Sequence record: PP456878.1
From: Pseudomonas phage vB_PaePAO1-KEN19
Length of the DNA stretch: 64,000 nucleotides
Direction: 5' to 3' (one strand)
Part shown: positions 38,474 through 58,091 of the stretch, piece after piece
Layout: the number at the start of each line of letters is the position of its first letter
Numbering within the stretch: the first letter of the stretch is position 1
Notes under the pieces: generated by a model
Databases searched by the model: none
Seen by the model: only the letters and a program-made list of their open reading frames with translations
Told to the model about the DNA's origin: nothing
Made by a program: the position numbers and the translations under genes

Positions 38474-40087
38474 CTATAAACGCATCATGCGCATACTTTT
38501 AGTTTTACCCATGAAATGATTTTCTTTATTTCTAGCGTATCTGCAATGATGAGGTATGTTATTACAAACCATGAATGTTAACCTTGGTATTACATCAGGC
38601 CAGTTCTTCAATGGTCTTAGTCGTCCAAGAATTTGGATGCTGTCCTTTTTAGAGTCAGTTGCTTGTAATAGAATAACTTCCCTTAAATTCCTAATATCAA
38701 CACCAGTACCAGATGATTTAATAGTTGATACAGTGATATCATTAGTCATTAATCTATCATACGGACTACCCGAAACATGTCTATTAATCTGAAGATCTGG
38801 ATATTGTTTCTTAAGATAAGCTGTCAGTACATCGATAAAGTTTACAGTCGCGCATAATAGCAAACATTTCTGACCTTCAATACGATCCTTTATATAAACG
38901 CCATCTACAATACGTTTAACCATCTTTAAATAGAAGTCTAGTCGCCTAGGATTCTTCATCATTACTGTTTCATAACGAGCATGGTTATATGTATTTTTAA
39001 ATGGAGTTAAATAGTCCTTAGGTTTAATAGTTGGTTCACTATATAACAAGCCAATAACATTGATGTATGAGTCATATGCAGGTAACCTACACTTTGTAGT
39101 GGCAGGTAGCATGACATCAATCATTTTAGTAACAAACTGATTACCAGTGTATGGAGTAGCTGATAAATAGATTTGTTTATTGACATTGGTATATAGATCA
39201 GTACGAAATACTAATCCTGGATCTTCTTGAATCTCATCATTGATCTGCCAACCTGCTCCAATAACCTCATGGAATCTAGGTGGTGGTACATTAAATCCAA
39301 CTACATCGATTTTTTCACCTAATCGTTCAAAAGTATCGATATATGCACGGTATGTTGTAGAACTAATGAGAATAATTTCAACACCCTCTAAATCATTCTC
39401 TAGTCCGCGATTAATTAGATTCTGTAACTCAGCAGATCCAGATACTTTTAAATATTTTATACCTAGCTGATCTTCATAACCAACAAATGTTTCTTTTAAT
39501 GCTTTCTCCCAAATACCGAAATATTTAGGTGGAATCATAACAACACCACGTTCTTTCATTACTGCAACTGAAGCTAAACTAGTTAAGGTTTTACCTTTAC
39601 CAGTCTGTAAATCAACACGTGCTGAATGTAAATGTGGTCTTAGAATATCTTCGCGGATGGTTTCCTGATAATCCCTTAGAACATAATGTTCAAATAAAGT
39701 ATAGTCTACTTTAACAGCTGTTGGTACAGGAATATCTACAATTTCAATTCTAGTAGATGGTATATTCTTATCGGCTAGATAATTAATAAGTTCTTGAAGA
39801 CATTCACGATGGATGAATACAGATTTACCATCTTCTGTTTCACCATAATATTTTTTCTTTATTTCCATTATGGTGCGTTGACCAGGTATCTTCTTAGGTT
39901 CTTTTAAAACCAGTTTATTAAGATATCCAGTCATCTTTAAGTATGTTTCCCGATCGTAACCGGATAAACGAACACCATGGGTGTATCGTTCTGCTGTAAG
40001 AATCGGTTTCATAAAAAAATCAACGATCGGTAAGGGGAGCAGTGCTCCCCAAACCTCACGTCCTCCACGTCTATCGCAGTTTACCAC
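38474..40087 (-). CDS. SF2 (DEAD/DExH-like) helicase, 537 aa
   Basis: Walker A LQTGKGKT, motif II-like NDEIQE, and later motifs (SAT-like LSATP). Confidence 0.6.
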   Translation of the reverse strand: MVNCDRRGGREVWGALLPLPIVDFFMKPILTAERYTHGVRLSGYDRETYLKMTGYLNKLVLKEPKKIPGQRTIMEIKKKYYGETEDGKSVFIHRECLQELINYLADKNIPSTRIEIVDIPVPTAVKVDYTLFEHYVLRDYQETIREDILRPHLHSARVDLQTGKGKTLTSLASVAVMKERGVVMIPPKYFGIWEKALKETFVGYEDQLGIKYLKVSGSAELQNLINRGLENDLEGVEIILISSTTYRAYIDTFERLGEKIDVVGFNVPPPRFHEVIGAGWQINDEIQEDPGLVFRTDLYTNVNKQIYLSATPYTGNQFVTKMIDVMLPATTKCRLPAYDSYINVIGLLYSEPTIKPKDYLTPFKNTYNHARYETVMMKNPRRLDFYLKMVKRIVDGVYIKDRIEGQKCLLLCATVNFIDVLTAYLKKQYPDLQINRHVSGSPYDRLMTNDITVSTIKSSGTGVDIRNLREVILLQATDSKKDSIQILGRLRPLKNWPDVIPRLTFMVCNNIPHHCRYARNKENHFMGKTKSMRMMRL

Positions 40088-42104
40088 CTTTAACTAGTAA
40101 GTCATATGGATGGTCATTCCTCATCTTGTTAAGGAAACTGCCTGGGTTATTTAGTGGCTCATGCTGCTTTTCGAAAGCCATCGCACCACCTAAACTACGA
40201 CATTGCATTAGCCTATTATATTTTTCAAATTGGCCATTAATACCGGGTTTAGGTAAGCGATAGTCTCGATATTGAGCTGAACGGATCATCATAGCGTATA
40301 TCAAGATCTCACAATGGGAAATATTAAGGCTAATCTTTTCATTAGCCATTGTTGCAAATACAGGTAGTGCTTCAATTGGTGACTTGTAGTTTTTAAGATA
40401 CGTTTTAGACGTATATCCAACTTTCTCAGTGCTTAGTTTACCTGCCTCGGCTGAGTCACTACCGGAATGTAAGAAACTTTGGAATCGTTTCATTACTTCA
40501 TACATGTTTACGTGCTTATTTGGTAGCGTTAAGAATGGTAGGTTAAAATCAAAACCACGAAGACTAATGACGATATTGTCTCGCTGATCTAGTTCCCAAC
40601 GGACCATCTTAATATGCTTTAGCATTTCAATAGATAGACTAGCCCTACGGTTATACAGCGACACAGTCAGAACATCACCACATTCACCATTCACCTCATC
40701 ATCATAGACTAGGGCCAGGCTGGTTAGTTCAGTAGCTGAAGTAGCTGGATATGCAGTAAGGTCATCAATCATTAAAATGTCAGCAAGGTTTTCTGCCTCT
40801 GACCGTGCGATTACTAAACGATAATCCTTCTGAGTAAGTTCTTTCTTTAGATATAGTGTCTCTGGGATTTCACCTGTTCTTAAATAATTACTTTCAATTT
40901 TGCCAAGTTTATATTGTTCTACAGCAGAAGACGCATCGGTGTGTTTAGTAGACAATACTGCTGAAGTAATTTTGTCACCCATCGATACGGCAGCAACCTG
41001 ACCGATATTAGTTCCTTTTGGAATATTGATACCTAGTCGGCCATAACAAGTCATACAGATACCCTGACTATCTGGATGATTACATCCAAATACAGACCTG
41101 AATTTCTGTTTAGTTCCAATTAGGTGTGTTTCATTTCCACGGATCCAGTCTAGTTTACCATCTTCTTTTTGATAATATTTTCCTTTGAATGCTTTTAAAG
41201 TTAACTTAGTTACAGGATACTCAGCTAAGATTGTGGTCTTACAATCACCAGGATGTAGCCTTTGGACATATTGTGCAATAAGCTGAGATTTCCGGTTAAA
41301 GTATTCAGTTACTCGCAGTAGTTCTTTGTTATATAGTAGCGCTTTAGTACCTGAACGAGATTCAATCATATTCTCATACAGATTCCAAATACCATCAATA
41401 TAACCAGTTGTTACCGGATATTTAAAGATATCTGAGTTAATGTCAGTTGGAAAGCCCCGCCAAGCAAATGCTTGTAGAAGCTGTTCAGTTTTCTGAGTAC
41501 CAGAACGAAGACCTTCAATGATGCTGTTACCAATGAATTGGGTAGGATCATTAAATACTTCTTTGACTTTACCATAACTAATTTTTTCGATACCATAAGT
41601 AGTTGGTTCGATATTATGGTTAGCCTCACGTACCTTGGGATGATTATATACTTCAGCAATATCAAACATCGACAAGGTTGCTAGATATTCAGACAGTTTC
41701 ACAGTGGTCTGATTATACAGCCAGTTCTTACCTTCAATAGCCAGTTTAGATAGTACTTCAGGATCTACTGTTTCACCTGACCAATCATAGATGTTCCAAA
41801 TAGCCTTATTTAAATGCTTAACCATGGCCTTAGATGTTACTCGGCCACCTTCAACATTTAGATAATCTTTAGGGTTATCAGTTAAGATGCGATTGAAATC
41901 GATATGGTGATCAGATGGAATTGGGCAATCTTTATAATGTTTAAGAGGATACCAACACAGAACGGATAATTTGGTAATACGGTCAACTGACACAACCGTT
42001 TTACCATCATCAAATTCGATTAGATGCCATTCTGAAGGGAGTGACCATAAATCATCATAACTTAGATTTAGAAGATCACGCGCTTTATAACGATTAAGAT
42101 TCAT
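40071..42104 (-). CDS. multisubunit RNA polymerase beta' C-terminal fragment (phiKZ gp74-like), 677 aa
   Basis: GQVAAVSMGDKITSAVLSTKHTDASSA resembles beta' region G ([30 protein letters not shown]). Lies directly downstream of the beta C-terminal gene. Confidence 0.6.
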   Translation of the reverse strand: MNLNRYKARDLLNLSYDDLWSLPSEWHLIEFDDGKTVVSVDRITKLSVLCWYPLKHYKDCPIPSDHHIDFNRILTDNPKDYLNVEGGRVTSKAMVKHLNKAIWNIYDWSGETVDPEVLSKLAIEGKNWLYNQTTVKLSEYLATLSMFDIAEVYNHPKVREANHNIEPTTYGIEKISYGKVKEVFNDPTQFIGNSIIEGLRSGTQKTEQLLQAFAWRGFPTDINSDIFKYPVTTGYIDGIWNLYENMIESRSGTKALLYNKELLRVTEYFNRKSQLIAQYVQRLHPGDCKTTILAEYPVTKLTLKAFKGKYYQKEDGKLDWIRGNETHLIGTKQKFRSVFGCNHPDSQGICMTCYGRLGINIPKGTNIGQVAAVSMGDKITSAVLSTKHTDASSAVEQYKLGKIESNYLRTGEIPETLYLKKELTQKDYRLVIARSEAENLADILMIDDLTAYPATSATELTSLALVYDDEVNGECGDVLTVSLYNRRASLSIEMLKHIKMVRWELDQRDNIVISLRGFDFNLPFLTLPNKHVNMYEVMKRFQSFLHSGSDSAEAGKLSTEKVGYTSKTYLKNYKSPIEALPVFATMANEKISLNISHCEILIYAMMIRSAQYRDYRLPKPGINGQFEKYNRLMQCRSLGGAMAFEKQHEPLNNPGSFLNKMRNDHPYDLLVKGGKLR

Positions 42105-42126
42105 TATTTACCTCTTGTATTATTAA

Positions 42127-42147
42127 ACCCCTGATCAATGATCAGGG
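42127..42147. terminator. hairpin CCCCTGATCA-A-TGATCAGGGG between the beta and beta' genes
   Basis: 10-bp perfect stem. Confidence 0.5.
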
Positions 42148-43058
42148 GCATATTCTAATGCAATACCACTACATTCAAGCAGGTGATCAAACATAGCTAC
42201 TGGGCGAGATCCACCAAATGGAATCTTTTCACGATCAACTGCAACTGGTACAGATGAAGGTTTTTCTGCTGTTAGCCAAGACTCGATAACCGCAGCATGC
42301 GCCAATGGGTTATTAGTTTGGTCTAAGATTTCAGCAGTCGGACCTGGACCAACTGTACAGTTATATGACCGAGTTTCAGATTCACCGAATGACCGGATAG
42401 CTGTTTCTCGACCAGGTGTGCTAGCCCTATCAGCATTGTTTAACTTAGAAGGTAGACCAAATGGTTGTGTTTTTACAGATGCTGCTGCTGACCAGTCTTC
42501 ACCAATCTTTTCTAGTAGCATCATGTAAAGTGGACCCATTAAGACATTATCTTTAGTTGTTACCCACTTACCAGCTTGATCTCGATAAGATACCTTCCCA
42601 TAGTGTGGTCGATACTTATCGCTATTAATTAATTTGTTGACTGCTGCCATTAGATCCACTGGATCATCAACTGGTGCGTAGATATATGGGAATCCATCCA
42701 TTAGTACTGTTTTAACATGTTCTGCTGGATTTGGGTGTTCCATCATTTTACTATGCATTGTTGGAGCAATGATCTCATAGAAACCTAATAGTTCTTTAAA
42801 TGCATAATCAACCCATTGCGTATTGCCCATTACACTATTTAGTTGTTGCTGGGTTGGTTTGGCATGTCGATCTAGTCCAGCTTCAACGCGTAGGCGTTGA
42901 GCTAGATCTCGTGCAGCTGCGCCAAAACCATGTTCATAAATTCGACCATAATTTGAACGACGCATGGTTGAACCACCAAAGATAATTAGATCTGCCCTAT
43001 TACCATTTTCGTCAATAGGCATATCTTCATCTTCCATTACCTTACAGATGACGCCCTT
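42135..43058 (-). CDS. RNA polymerase beta C-terminal gene, exon 2 (307 codons)
   Basis: [42 protein letters not shown] matches beta [46 protein letters not shown] resembles GQRFGEME. The 5' boundary is inferred from the intron 3' end ...CTGAACATAACG. Confidence 0.7.
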   Translation of the reverse strand, partial: [307 protein letters not shown]

Positions 43059-43362
43059 CGTTATGTTCAGGTAAGTTCGCTACGCTTACCCCGCCTCTCG
43101 TATTGCAGGCAGCTGCATGTCACCATGCAGACCAGACTATATCTTAACCTTCACCCTAGGTGGTCAGGTCCCTCCCATTTCCACTCGCTTGAGTGTACTC
43201 CGCGTAACCGGATAGTCGTTGAACGTTCAATCCATTTCTGGAAAGCTTCGCTGCTGATTGTCTCATTGAGATGTCCCAGCAATTAGAGAGGATTTACTTG
43301 ACTCTTTCGAGATCAAGCAGGCAATTTGACAATATCCATTCCTGAGAGATGGATGGATATTA
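43059..43362 (-). mobile_element. group I intron A (ORF-less, about 304 nt) in the RNAP beta gene
   Basis: On the minus strand: P AATTGCTGGGA, Q AATCAGCAGC, R GTTCAACGACTAT, S AAGATATAGTCTGG. The upstream exon stop TAA sits at the intron start. Boundaries are accurate to a few nt. Confidence 0.8.
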
Positions 43363-44559
43363 ATTACCACCATGAAAATCAGTCATCTTGAAAGCACCAG
43401 CAGGCATCTTTTGGGCTTTGTAAGTTACTTCGACTCGCCATTCATCTAGTGGGTCTAGTCGATAGAATCGAGATAGTTTACGGACATTATCAGGTTGAGG
43501 TAGGAACATCTGTGCAGTTACAATAAGACGTTCAAATTCCTCAGTGATATGTAGATCATCTTTACGACGTGCTAATAGACCACGATAGATCTTTAATAGT
43601 TCTCGATAATAACTGCTAAGATGAGTATGATATTTAACTAGTTGTGCATCCATTCCTGTTGGAGTAGGGGATGGATTTACACGCTCATCACGCCAAATAT
43701 CAATATCAATAACCTTCGCACCAGGTGTGCCAATAACAGCTCTATCGAAAGTTCTATCTAGTGTACGAAGTGCCCTAGGAGTCATCTCGGCAGGAGCTAG
43801 ATCATCATCATGGTCACGGATGGCGAAGATTACACCATCTGGTCGGATAACATCGCCAATGTCTGGGAATGGTTTATAGACCTTATCATCGCCATACATG
43901 TTTAAGAAGAAAGCTTTCCTACCAGCATTAGCTACAGCCGTGCTATAACTAGTTGGCATCATCCTTTTAAGGAAATTCTTATTAGCTACGAATCCATCTT
44001 CAATGGTACCAGCGGCAGATAGGAATACAACATTAGCATTAACACCCATCCCTAAAGTACCGTCTTTCTTAACTGCACCAGACTGTGCAATCACTGTGTC
44101 TTTAGAGAACATTTCATTTGGGGCAATGGTTTCCCACACTTCTCGATTCTTTACAAGTTCATAACCAAAGTCTTGGTGATGACTCATGTACTCGGGAACA
44201 TGTAAGACACCAATGGTTTTATATTTGTCAAAATAGTTTTCGTAGATAATAGTTGTTACCGGGTTAGATCTAATACTGTCTTTACCAATACCCGTTGGAT
44301 ATTTTCTAAGAACATGTAGTACACGACAATCCTCAGGAAAACGAACATCATGTGTATACTTGGCATACTCTAATTCAGCACCCGTTAGGAAATAACGCGA
44401 TTCATTTCCATTTACTTCTGGTGCCTGGCCAATATGTGTTACAAACATAGCACCCCGTGCAGATGAGGTAGTGCCATACCAAGGATCTAAACCAGTATGC
44501 CCTAATAGGGTTAGATCAATTTCACGTTTACCTAGTTCAGCCATTTTGTTTATCACCAT
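43363..44559 (-). CDS. RNA polymerase beta C-terminal gene, exon 1 (399 codons)
   Basis: GMGVNANVVFLSAAGTIEDGF resembles beta GxNVLVAFMPWNGYNFED. It ends ...TDFHGGN, the first half of the GRHGNKG motif, which exon 2 completes. Confidence 0.7.
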
Positions 44560-44656
44560 TAATTAGACAAGATGCAGTACTACTATATTTCTTATTTGCG
44601 CTGTTTTTAGATATAGCCTTTTGTAAGACTTCAATGTCTGGTATCACCAATCTCAT
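44537..44656 (-). CDS. 39-codon upstream ORF with a strong SD, overlapping the beta gene start (possible leader/coupling peptide)
   Basis: AACAGGAGGT-n5-ATG AGA TTG... ends AAT GGC TGA, overlapping the ATG GCT of the beta ORF (ATGGCTGA). Not in the ORF track because it is under 60 aa. Confidence 0.3.
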   Translation of the reverse strand: MRLVIPDIEVLQKAISKNSANKKYSSTASCLINGDKQNG

Positions 44657-57185: not shown

Positions 57186-57680
57186 CGTTATGTTCAGTAT
57201 GGGTCGTTAATCCATACCCGGTAGTATAATTACCACATGATAATTACCACCTGCTGCATGTCACCATGCAGACCAGACTATATCTTCACCCTTCCTTTCG
57301 GAGTGGGGTGTCTCCCATTTCGAGTCACTTGACCCTACATCCTATTTCTAGGACCGGTGCACCTGATACCGTAATAGTCGTTGAACCTTCTCCTATTCCT
57401 AAATGGAATGTTACGGAGCTTGGCTGCTGATTGGCCCTACCTAATCTTTTTCAAACCTTGGCTTTGTCTTTCGACTCGCAGTGGTAGATTAGTTTAACAG
57501 GATATCCCAGCAATTAGAGAGAACTCACCCCAATGATTACTCACTGGGGGAACTAGACTTGATTAACTTAATAAGGTATTTATCAAGCACTTCATATTCA
57601 ATTTTAAATGAAGCCGGATCAAAGACGGACACTACTCCGTTTTGTTCCATTGTTTTTACCTTATTTAGTTAGTTGTCCAT
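57186..57680 (-). mobile_element. group I intron B (about 495 nt) in the RNAP beta' gene; carries a 37-codon ORF
   Basis: Same P/Q/R/S core as intron A (AATTGCTGGGA, AATCAGCAGC, GTTCAACGACTAT, AAGATATAGTCTGG) with larger peripheral insertions. Confidence 0.75.
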
Positions 57681-57788
57681 TAGGCGCTTTAAGGCATAAT
57701 ACTGACATGCTGATTGAATTATCATTAATGTCATCTTTTACTTTAGTAATAAAGAATTGTTGAGTAGATCCACGTTGAAGGGTCGGCG
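57681..57788 (-). CDS. RNA polymerase beta' N-terminal gene, exon 2 (36-codon micro-exon)
   Basis: Encodes PTLQRGSTQQFFITKVKDDINDNSISMSVLCLKAPN, in frame with exon 1 (...FHRN). It resembles beta' NRAPTLHRLGIQAF...LVCAAYN, which precedes NADFDGD. Confidence 0.65.
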
Positions 57789-58091
57789 TTGTGTTCAGAT
57801 AAGTTCGTTAAGCTTATCCCGTCTATTAATAATAGACAGCTGCATGTCGCCATGCAGACCAGACTATATCTTCACCTTTGGCATTACCCAGTAAGGTGCT
57901 CCCCATTTCGAGTCACTTGACTCTACTCTACTCGGTTCACTTTCGTGCCTTTCGATAGTCGTTGAACGTTCAATCCATTTCTGGAAAGCTTCGCTGCTGA
58001 TTGTCTCATTGAGATGTCCCAGCAATTAAAGGAGTTTTGTCGAGTAATATTTCTATTACAAGGAAACCATTTAGTATTAATATACAAATTA
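57789..58091 (-). mobile_element. group I intron C (ORF-less, about 303 nt) in the RNAP beta' gene
   Basis: The 75-nt core is identical to intron A (ATAGTCGTTGAACGTTCAATCCATTTCTGGAAAGCTTCGCTGCTGATTGTCTCATTGAGATGTCCCAGCAATTA on the plus strand). It ends CTGAACACAACG. Confidence 0.8.

Follow-up and report, generated by a model that had tools for sequence, protein, structure and literature searches.

The non-virion RNA polymerase (nvRNAP) of phage phiKZ has a C-terminal β-like subunit, gp71-73, which is a single polypeptide encoded by genes 71 and 73 (PMC4666361, PMC8287921). The sequence studied here, 64,000 nt of Pseudomonas phage vB_PaePAO1-KEN19 (PP456878.1; this whole stretch is called the window below), carries counterparts of both genes as minus-strand open reading frames (ORFs), gene 71 at 43360–44559 and gene 73 at 42135–43037, together with a counterpart of gene 74 at 40071–42104 on the same strand. 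Over positions 42100–44600 the window matches Phikzvirus genomes, PA_ZH1 and KTN4 among them, at 100% identity, which by sequence identifies its source as a phiKZ-type Pseudomonas jumbo phage. An earlier sequence-only reading of the window proposed that an RNAP β-like gene is split here, at the counterpart of the bacterial GRHGNKG motif, by an ORF-less group I intron; both the split and the nature of the insert proved correct, as did the description of the upstream ORF as ending in ...TDFHGGN plus TAA, that of the downstream frame as opening with KGVICKVMEDEDMP and lacking an ATG for its first 21 nt (the first is at 43037), and the observation that removal of 43059–43362 leaves a single open frame. 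The mechanical ORF of the 5′ exon reaches 43360 by reading the intron bases AAT TAA, and the 3′ exon has no start codon of its own before 43037. The spliced product computed from the window has 700 aa and 78.6 kDa; the products of the two unspliced ORFs would have 44.7 and 33.3 kDa. The features of the locus, and those of the related introns in the β′-like gene gp55, are collected in Table 1.

Table 1. Exons, introns and ribozyme elements of the gp71-73 and gp55 loci (window coordinates, except for KEN49, PP456877).
Feature	Coordinates	Strand	Basis or remark
5′ exon, phiKZ gene 71 part of gp71-73	43366..44544	-	ends GAT TTT CAT GGT GGT (D F H G G)
Group I intron, 307 nt, ORF-less	43059..43365	-	Rfam 84.2 bits; intron-less allele and PDB sequence; covariation
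P1 5′ strand, exon GGU (43368-43366) and intron AAUU (43365-43362)	43362..43368	-	MFE and centroid fold
P1a hairpin in P1 loop	43332..43360	-	phiKZ alignment; T2P variant
Internal guide sequence AAUUGCC, P1 3′ strand	43320..43326	-	fold
P2 hairpin CUUGAUCUC-GAAA-GAGUCAAG	43297..43317	-	helix 1, 7/7 pairs covary
P3 5′ strand CCUCUC, pairs with 43171-43176 (GGGAGG)	43286..43291	-	helix 2, 5/6 pairs compensatory
75-nt block, J3/4 to P7 5′ strand	43211..43285	-	100% identical to 57954-58028 (43285-43211 = 58028-57954)
P4 (43282-43276 with 43257-43251) around P5 hairpin (43271-43261)	43251..43282	-	Rfam, alignment fold, pair count
P6 hairpin CUUUCCA-GAAA-UGGAUUG	43228..43245	-	Rfam; Churi/GUMS comparison
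J6/7 and P7 5′ strand (GUUCAACGACUA)	43213..43224	-	GACUA pairs with UAGUC within 43135-43145; helix 6, invariant
P7.1 (43211-43200) and P7.2 (43194-43183) hairpins	43183..43211	-	fold; helix 7
P8 hairpin	43146..43170	-	Rfam; helix 8, 4/5 pairs compensatory
P9 (43130-43113), P9.1 (43112-43091), P9.2 (43090-43070)	43070..43130	-	Rfam, fold; helices 9 and 10
3′ tail UGAACAUAACG with terminal G	43059..43069	-	common to both gp55 introns
3′ exon, phiKZ gene 73 part	42135..43058	-	opens AAG GGC GTC (K G V)
I-55a, β′-like gene gp55, HRN|PTL junction	57787..58091	-	Rfam; PDB 7OGP_A; alignment
I-55b, gp55, APN|ADFDGD junction, 493 nt	57186..57678	-	Rfam; PDB 7OGP_A
KEN49 I-55a	4404-4055	-	
KEN49 I-55b, with NUMOD1 endonuclease remnant	3946-2574	-	
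KEN49 I-55c	2555-2168	-	

The intron begins with A at 43365 and ends with the terminal (ω) G at 43059, its 3′ end reading ...ACAUAACG|AAGGGC. The 700-aa phiKZ gp71-73 sequence in PDB 7OGP (chain C) aligns end to end with the conceptual product of removing 304 nt, and has one residue fewer than that product (...FHGG-KGVICKV...); this chain is a recombinant protein that shows the depositors' junction, not a direct measurement, and natural uninterrupted alleles were therefore sought. The intron-less β allele that the sequence-only reading had suggested looking for was found by tblastn with the junction region in Phikzvirus KEN49, where the gene is continuous, the exons are 98% identical and the junction reads GAT TTT CAT GGA GGG AAG GGA GTT (DFHGGKGV). 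The homologues of 201phi2-1 (DFFGGKGV) and PS119XW (DFHGGKGV) also have GGKG with no Asn, and removal of the intron restores a frame that is colinear with those of KEN49, 201phi2-1, PS119XW and 7OGP chain C. Because the KEN49 allele, the two homologues, the PDB chain and the predicted U·G pair of P1 all agree, the 5′ splice site follows GGT GGT, at 43366, and AAT (43365–43363) forms the first three bases of the intron.

A 304-nt intron (43059–43362), as first proposed, sets the 5′ boundary 3 nt too far in, and the GNKG match to the β motif came from reading the intron codon AAT as Asn. Such an intron would still leave a 5′ exon that ends in U and keep the frame, the exons before both gp55 introns do end in AAT, and the mature protein, ...HGGNKGV..., would match GRHGNKG, with GNKG similar to the bacterial motif. 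It is nevertheless highly improbable: Asn is absent from the GGKG of the intron-less allele and two more homologues and from the PDB chain; U43363 pairs with A in the predicted P1, in which the only U·G wobble falls at 43366; an added Asn would set the two conserved DPBB lysines 9 residues apart, against the 8 of K386 and K394 in phiKZ (PMC8287921); and alignment with bacterial β would need a gap. The 307-nt boundaries keep the lysine spacing at 8 and align FHGGKG with bacterial RHGNKG ungapped, so that the intron stands between the codons for G393 and K394, directly before K394, the counterpart of the Lys in the bacterial GRHGNKG motif. The further claim that all three 5′ exons of the window end in AAT is right for the two gp55 introns and wrong for gp71-73, whose 5′ exon ends in GGT. 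A different register of P1, with the hairpin AUAUCCAU/AUGGAUAU, was considered and rejected; it moves the U·G pair one base into the 304-nt intron, breaks the frame and requires an intron with a final base other than G.

Rfam model RF00028 (gathering score, 50) matches 43113–43341 with 84.2 bits over its full length (1–253), one of three RF00028 matches in the 64-kb window, all on the minus strand, the others being 57840–58089 (86.3 bits) and 57254–57574 (78.2 bits). The fold prediction that had been called for placed elements from P1 to P9.2 and gave a z-score of −3.5. Covariation was assessed over seven introns (the gp71-73 intron, its T2P allele, the two gp55 introns of the window and three gp55 introns of KEN49) for a structure comprising P2, P3, P4, P5, P6, P7 (pseudoknot), P7.2, P8, P9, and P9.2: standard pairs filled 93.7% of the cells and 31 of the 56 pairs showed compensatory changes, as against 32–43% paired and 6–8 compensatory pairs in slid controls, and the observed pairing values were reached by none of 500 shuffles. 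Compensatory changes thus support the P3–P9 core, including the P3/P7 pseudoknot topology, and extend to 3 of 5 pairs of P7.2; P4 and P7 are invariant across the seven introns, hence uninformative for covariation. RNAalifold, which cannot model the P3/P7 pseudoknot, gave spurious small hairpins in J6/7 and J8/7; P6 and P7 were specified manually before the pairs were counted. In that count P6 was 64% paired, with the longer P6 arms of other introns misaligned; P6 was judged instead from direct comparison with the I-55a alleles of Churi and GUMS, in which it reads CCUAUUA-GAAA-UAAUAGG, fully different from the CUUUCCA-GAAA-UGGAUUG of the window and self-complementary.

P1 is predicted to form between GGU|AAUU and the guide AAUUGCC (7 bp); the folded helix takes in GGU and AAU and could be extended by one U-A pair, and its U·G wobble at U43366 appears in both the MFE and centroid structures. 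The internal guide sequence is conserved between this allele and those of phiKZ and T2P, and P10 would have at most 2 bp. Two features point to an IA-like subgroup: the intron has P7.1 and P7.2, and its 3′ third shares about 80% identity with the T4 td intron. The segment 43059–43145 (minus strand; J8/7-P7-P9 and the 3′ tail) is 78–83% identical to the intron 3′ ends of many unrelated phages, among them T4 td, the nrdD introns of Felix-O1-like Salmonella phages, and rV5-like and Pectobacterium phages, a distribution that indicates a widely shared phage intron module.

Published evidence on splicing in vivo is in conflict. Native nvRNAP purified from infected cells consists of five polypeptides, including a single gp71-73 of 74 kDa and a gp55 of 56 kDa (PMC4666361), masses that fit the ligated products (78.6 kDa and, for gp55, 508 aa), not the 44.7- and 33.3-kDa products of the unspliced ORFs. 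Long-read ONT-cappable-seq of phiKZ (2024) gave, under its conditions, no evidence of splicing at the gp56, gp72 and gp179 introns (PMC10914365), a result that would suit a decayed, non-splicing relic flanked by two separately translated polypeptides, gp71 and gp73, as in other splits of jumbo-phage RNAP genes; many GenBank records do annotate two CDSs, and the ATG 21 nt into the downstream frame could serve the second. Such a relic is very unlikely, given the one 74-kDa band among five subunits in the native enzyme, the intact ribozyme core with compensatory window/T2P differences in P2 and P8, the uninterrupted gene of a sequenced relative (KEN49), and the fact that a split would divide the catalytic DPBB motif, with loss of KGVICKV. 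Splicing is favored because the protein evidence is given more weight, the covarying ribozyme is intact and the intron sits in a catalytic motif.

We infer that the gp71-73 intron splices itself by an autocatalytic, guanosine-initiated reaction. The pre-mRNA would fold, and pairing of the guide AAUUGCC with GGU|AAUU would form P1 and place the U·G wobble at the cleavage site; an exogenous G would then attack after U43366, the terminal G (43059) would take the G-binding site in P7, and ligation of the exons at CATGGTGGT|AAGGGCGTC would yield ...DFHGG-KGVICK... in the subunit of 700 aa and 78.6 kDa.

The intron is already known, and the window copy is the commonest natural form of it, one that has no endonuclease. 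The accepted subunit name, gp71-73, presupposes it, and it was predicted in the phiKZ genome paper as that work is cited in PMC10914365; a literature search on gp71-73 together with the intron returned nothing, and nvRNAP papers use the fused name without mention of introns. In the phiKZ reference (NC_004629), the same gene is interrupted at the same insertion site by the same ribozyme, genes 71 and 73 being separated by a 1218-nt intron. In the alignment, the phiKZ intron has 911 nt more than the 307-nt form, as one segment within the P1a hairpin loop (part of the P1 loop); otherwise a few substitutions separate the two, all in or adjoining that hairpin. The 911-nt segment, absent from the window allele, carries orf72, an HNH endonuclease gene whose product, gp72, scores weakly and just under the cut-offs for HNH_3 (24.1 bits; cut-off 24.8) and NUMOD4 (20.2 bits; cut-off 23.4). 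The sequence-only reading had raised the possibility that the enzyme that moved the intron is now lost, which agrees with the retention of gp72 in the phiKZ P1 loop and with the content of the window intron, where a search for an endonuclease ORF found none, the only ORFs being of 43 and 53 aa and overlapping the ribozyme core. As it holds no endonuclease ORF, the window copy is not autonomously mobile. Experimentally, orf72 can be deleted (PMC12676376).

Alleles were counted in 46 Phikzvirus records with a query of 900 + 900 nt of joined exons, intron length being taken from the match span. The 307-nt ORF-less allele occurs in 35 records, in all of which the intron is identical; a 313-nt variant, in which a Shine-Dalgarno sequence remains and an ATG is joined to the tail of the ORF, occurs in four (T2P, U1B, U5, and phi9_PA9); the 1218-nt ORF-containing allele occurs in five (phiKZ twice, OMKO1, fMGyn-Pae01, and FBPa36); and the site is empty in one (KEN49). 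The remaining record, PaZh_1 (MN871489, UNVERIFIED), has a 278-nt allele in which a 29-nt deletion at 980–985 removes P4-P5, for which reason the Rfam scan of this allele gave no match; the deletion is probably a sequence or assembly error, or marks a dead intron in an essential gene, and was given no weight in judging the window intron. Most sequenced Phikzvirus genomes have lost orf72 and kept an intact ribozyme, which must be kept because the intron sits in an essential catalytic motif. The homing-endonuclease cycle of Goddard and Burt, described for yeast mitochondrial ω, runs through invasion, ORF decay and intron loss. All three states (ORF+, ORF−, and empty) are found at the gp71-73 site between exons that are at least 97% identical, and the locus is a textbook case of this life cycle; the series is only a snapshot of it.

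Within this cycle gp72 would be the homing endonuclease that drives the spread of the intron. The exons of the window and KEN49 differ at 37 positions, of which 13, all synonymous, fall between −88 and +8 relative to the insertion site; in window coordinates the cluster covers 43271–43453 and 43051–43058 (against KEN49; 96 nt). Within 20 nt of the site there are four differences against 0.7 expected (P = 0.005), and these four stand in 13 junction nt: GGA GGG|AAG GGA GTT in KEN49 and GGT GGT|AAG GGC GTC in the window. Presence/absence polymorphism, resting on one empty site among the 46 records, was thus found together with a flanking pattern of the co-conversion type. The clustered differences could reflect co-conversion or the divergence of an endonuclease-resistant target site, and the synonymous changes of KEN49 relative to the GGTGGTAAGGGCGTC site may confer resistance to gp72.

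The two other group I introns of the window interrupt gp55, at junctions read from PDB 7OGP chain A (a fusion of gp55 with PHIKZ056.1) as HRN|PTL and APN|ADFDGD. I-55a is inserted at the NRAPTLH-like motif of β′; it is missing from the phiKZ reference and T2P and present in about 9 of the 46 records, and in Churi and GUMS it carries an HNH ORF. The 5′ splice site of I-55b lies after GCGCCTAAT (57679), the Rfam match covering the core only, and a 37-aa ORF inside it (57537–57650) is what remains of the phiKZ gp56 HNH endonuclease, with N- and C-terminal parts fused. In KEN49 (PP456877), gp55 (minus strand, 4404–2168) has three group I introns; the exon between I-55b and I-55c is only 18 nt long (GCTGATTTTGACGGAGAT) and encodes exactly ADFDGD, the Mg-binding motif, and KEN49 gp55 joined at these boundaries matches 7OGP chain A across the junctions.

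The sequence-only reading took the gp71-73 element for a third copy of the same intron. The 75-nt block of 100% identity with the gp55 intron on which it relied is present as described, and CTGAACAYAACG does close all three introns, as it had stated; the alignment of the three elements that it recommended shows, however, that overall identity to I-55a is 67% and that exact identity is confined to certain blocks, so that the introns are related but distinct and I-55a is a mosaic. In a three-way alignment P1–P3 and P8 of the window I-55a match KEN49 I-55a, which has a different P4–P6; the P9 region and 3′ tail of the window I-55a are also similar to the gp71-73 intron. All lineages examined have the block in their gp71-73 intron (with one base different in T2P), and it also occurs in the gp55 intron of phage LC. 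On these alignments the window I-55a reads as a chimera that has P1–P3 and P8 from the I-55a lineage and P4–P6 from the gp71-73 intron, and the comparison supports ectopic gene conversion between related introns about 15 kb apart in one genome as the source of the 75-nt identity. From the few alleles available, we infer that conversion ran from the gp71-73 intron to I-55a in the window lineage. Of the proposed recently spread or homogenized family, the copying of the block between introns therefore stands, but the idea of three copies of a single element does not. Exact 75-nt repeats can confuse short-read assemblers, and the identity might in principle be an assembly or duplication artefact; the chance of this is practically negligible, given that 35 genomes deposited separately have the identical gp71-73 intron, that the chimeric gp55 intron recurs at 96–99.8% identity in at least six records, including LC with the same block, and that the block has unique flanking sequences, which fit the register of the ribozyme fold. 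Taken together, the window very probably carries, in gp71-73, a 307-nt group I ribozyme of subgroup-IA-like type that is the endonuclease-less allele of the phiKZ intron and shares its block with I-55a through gene conversion.

The introns of T4 td, nrdB and sunY resemble those of the window in several respects: they lie at conserved motifs of essential enzyme genes, several related introns occur in one genome, P7.1/P7.2 are present in both the T4 introns (IA2) and the window intron, and cores have recombined in both. Domain shuffling between T4 introns was reportedly described by Bryk and Belfort in 1990, and intron-to-intron conversion is on that account a known phenomenon. The host genes differ, being genes of nucleotide metabolism in T4 and of a multisubunit RNA polymerase here, and the window phage, unlike T4, is a nucleus-forming jumbo phage. 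The ORFs of T4 introns sit in P6 or P9 loops, whereas the ORF site of the window intron family is the P1 loop. Closer in setting is PhiPA3 gp210, a virion RNAP β-like gene with a group I intron that encodes an HNH endonuclease and for which competitive interference has been demonstrated (Birkholz et al., 2024, PMC11620839). Like the gp71-73 intron, it lies in a jumbo-phage RNAP gene, at a catalytic motif, and its site is polymorphic among relatives; the gp210 intron differs in belonging to the virion and not the non-virion RNAP, in its insertion site and in having retained its ORF.

It is possible, though we regard it as unlikely, that the endonuclease-less nvRNAP introns, instead of being mere parasites in decay, are retained as functional ribozymes that swap core modules through gene conversion within natural populations and are spliced in the ribosome-free early vesicle or phage nucleus, unlike the translation-dependent T4 introns, and that splicing might gate nvRNAP production; such a gate could also account for a pooled long-read transcriptome without spliced reads. 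Knowledge of how group I introns work is unchanged by the gp71-73 results, and their chief value lies in annotation and housekeeping. The Phikzvirus nvRNAP genes offer a compact natural series of the homing cycle, with ORF+, ORF− and empty alleles, module exchange and as many as three gp55 introns. For modeling or expressing the polymerase the precise junction, GG|K with no Asn, matters, and gp71 and gp73 are annotated as separate genes in most Phikzvirus GenBank records examined. The small ORFs of 37–53 aa that lie wholly inside the ribozyme core (43125–43286, plus strand, and 43151–43282, minus strand, in the window; PHIKZ072.1 in phiKZ) are almost certainly not genes; some records annotate such ORFs as hypothetical proteins.
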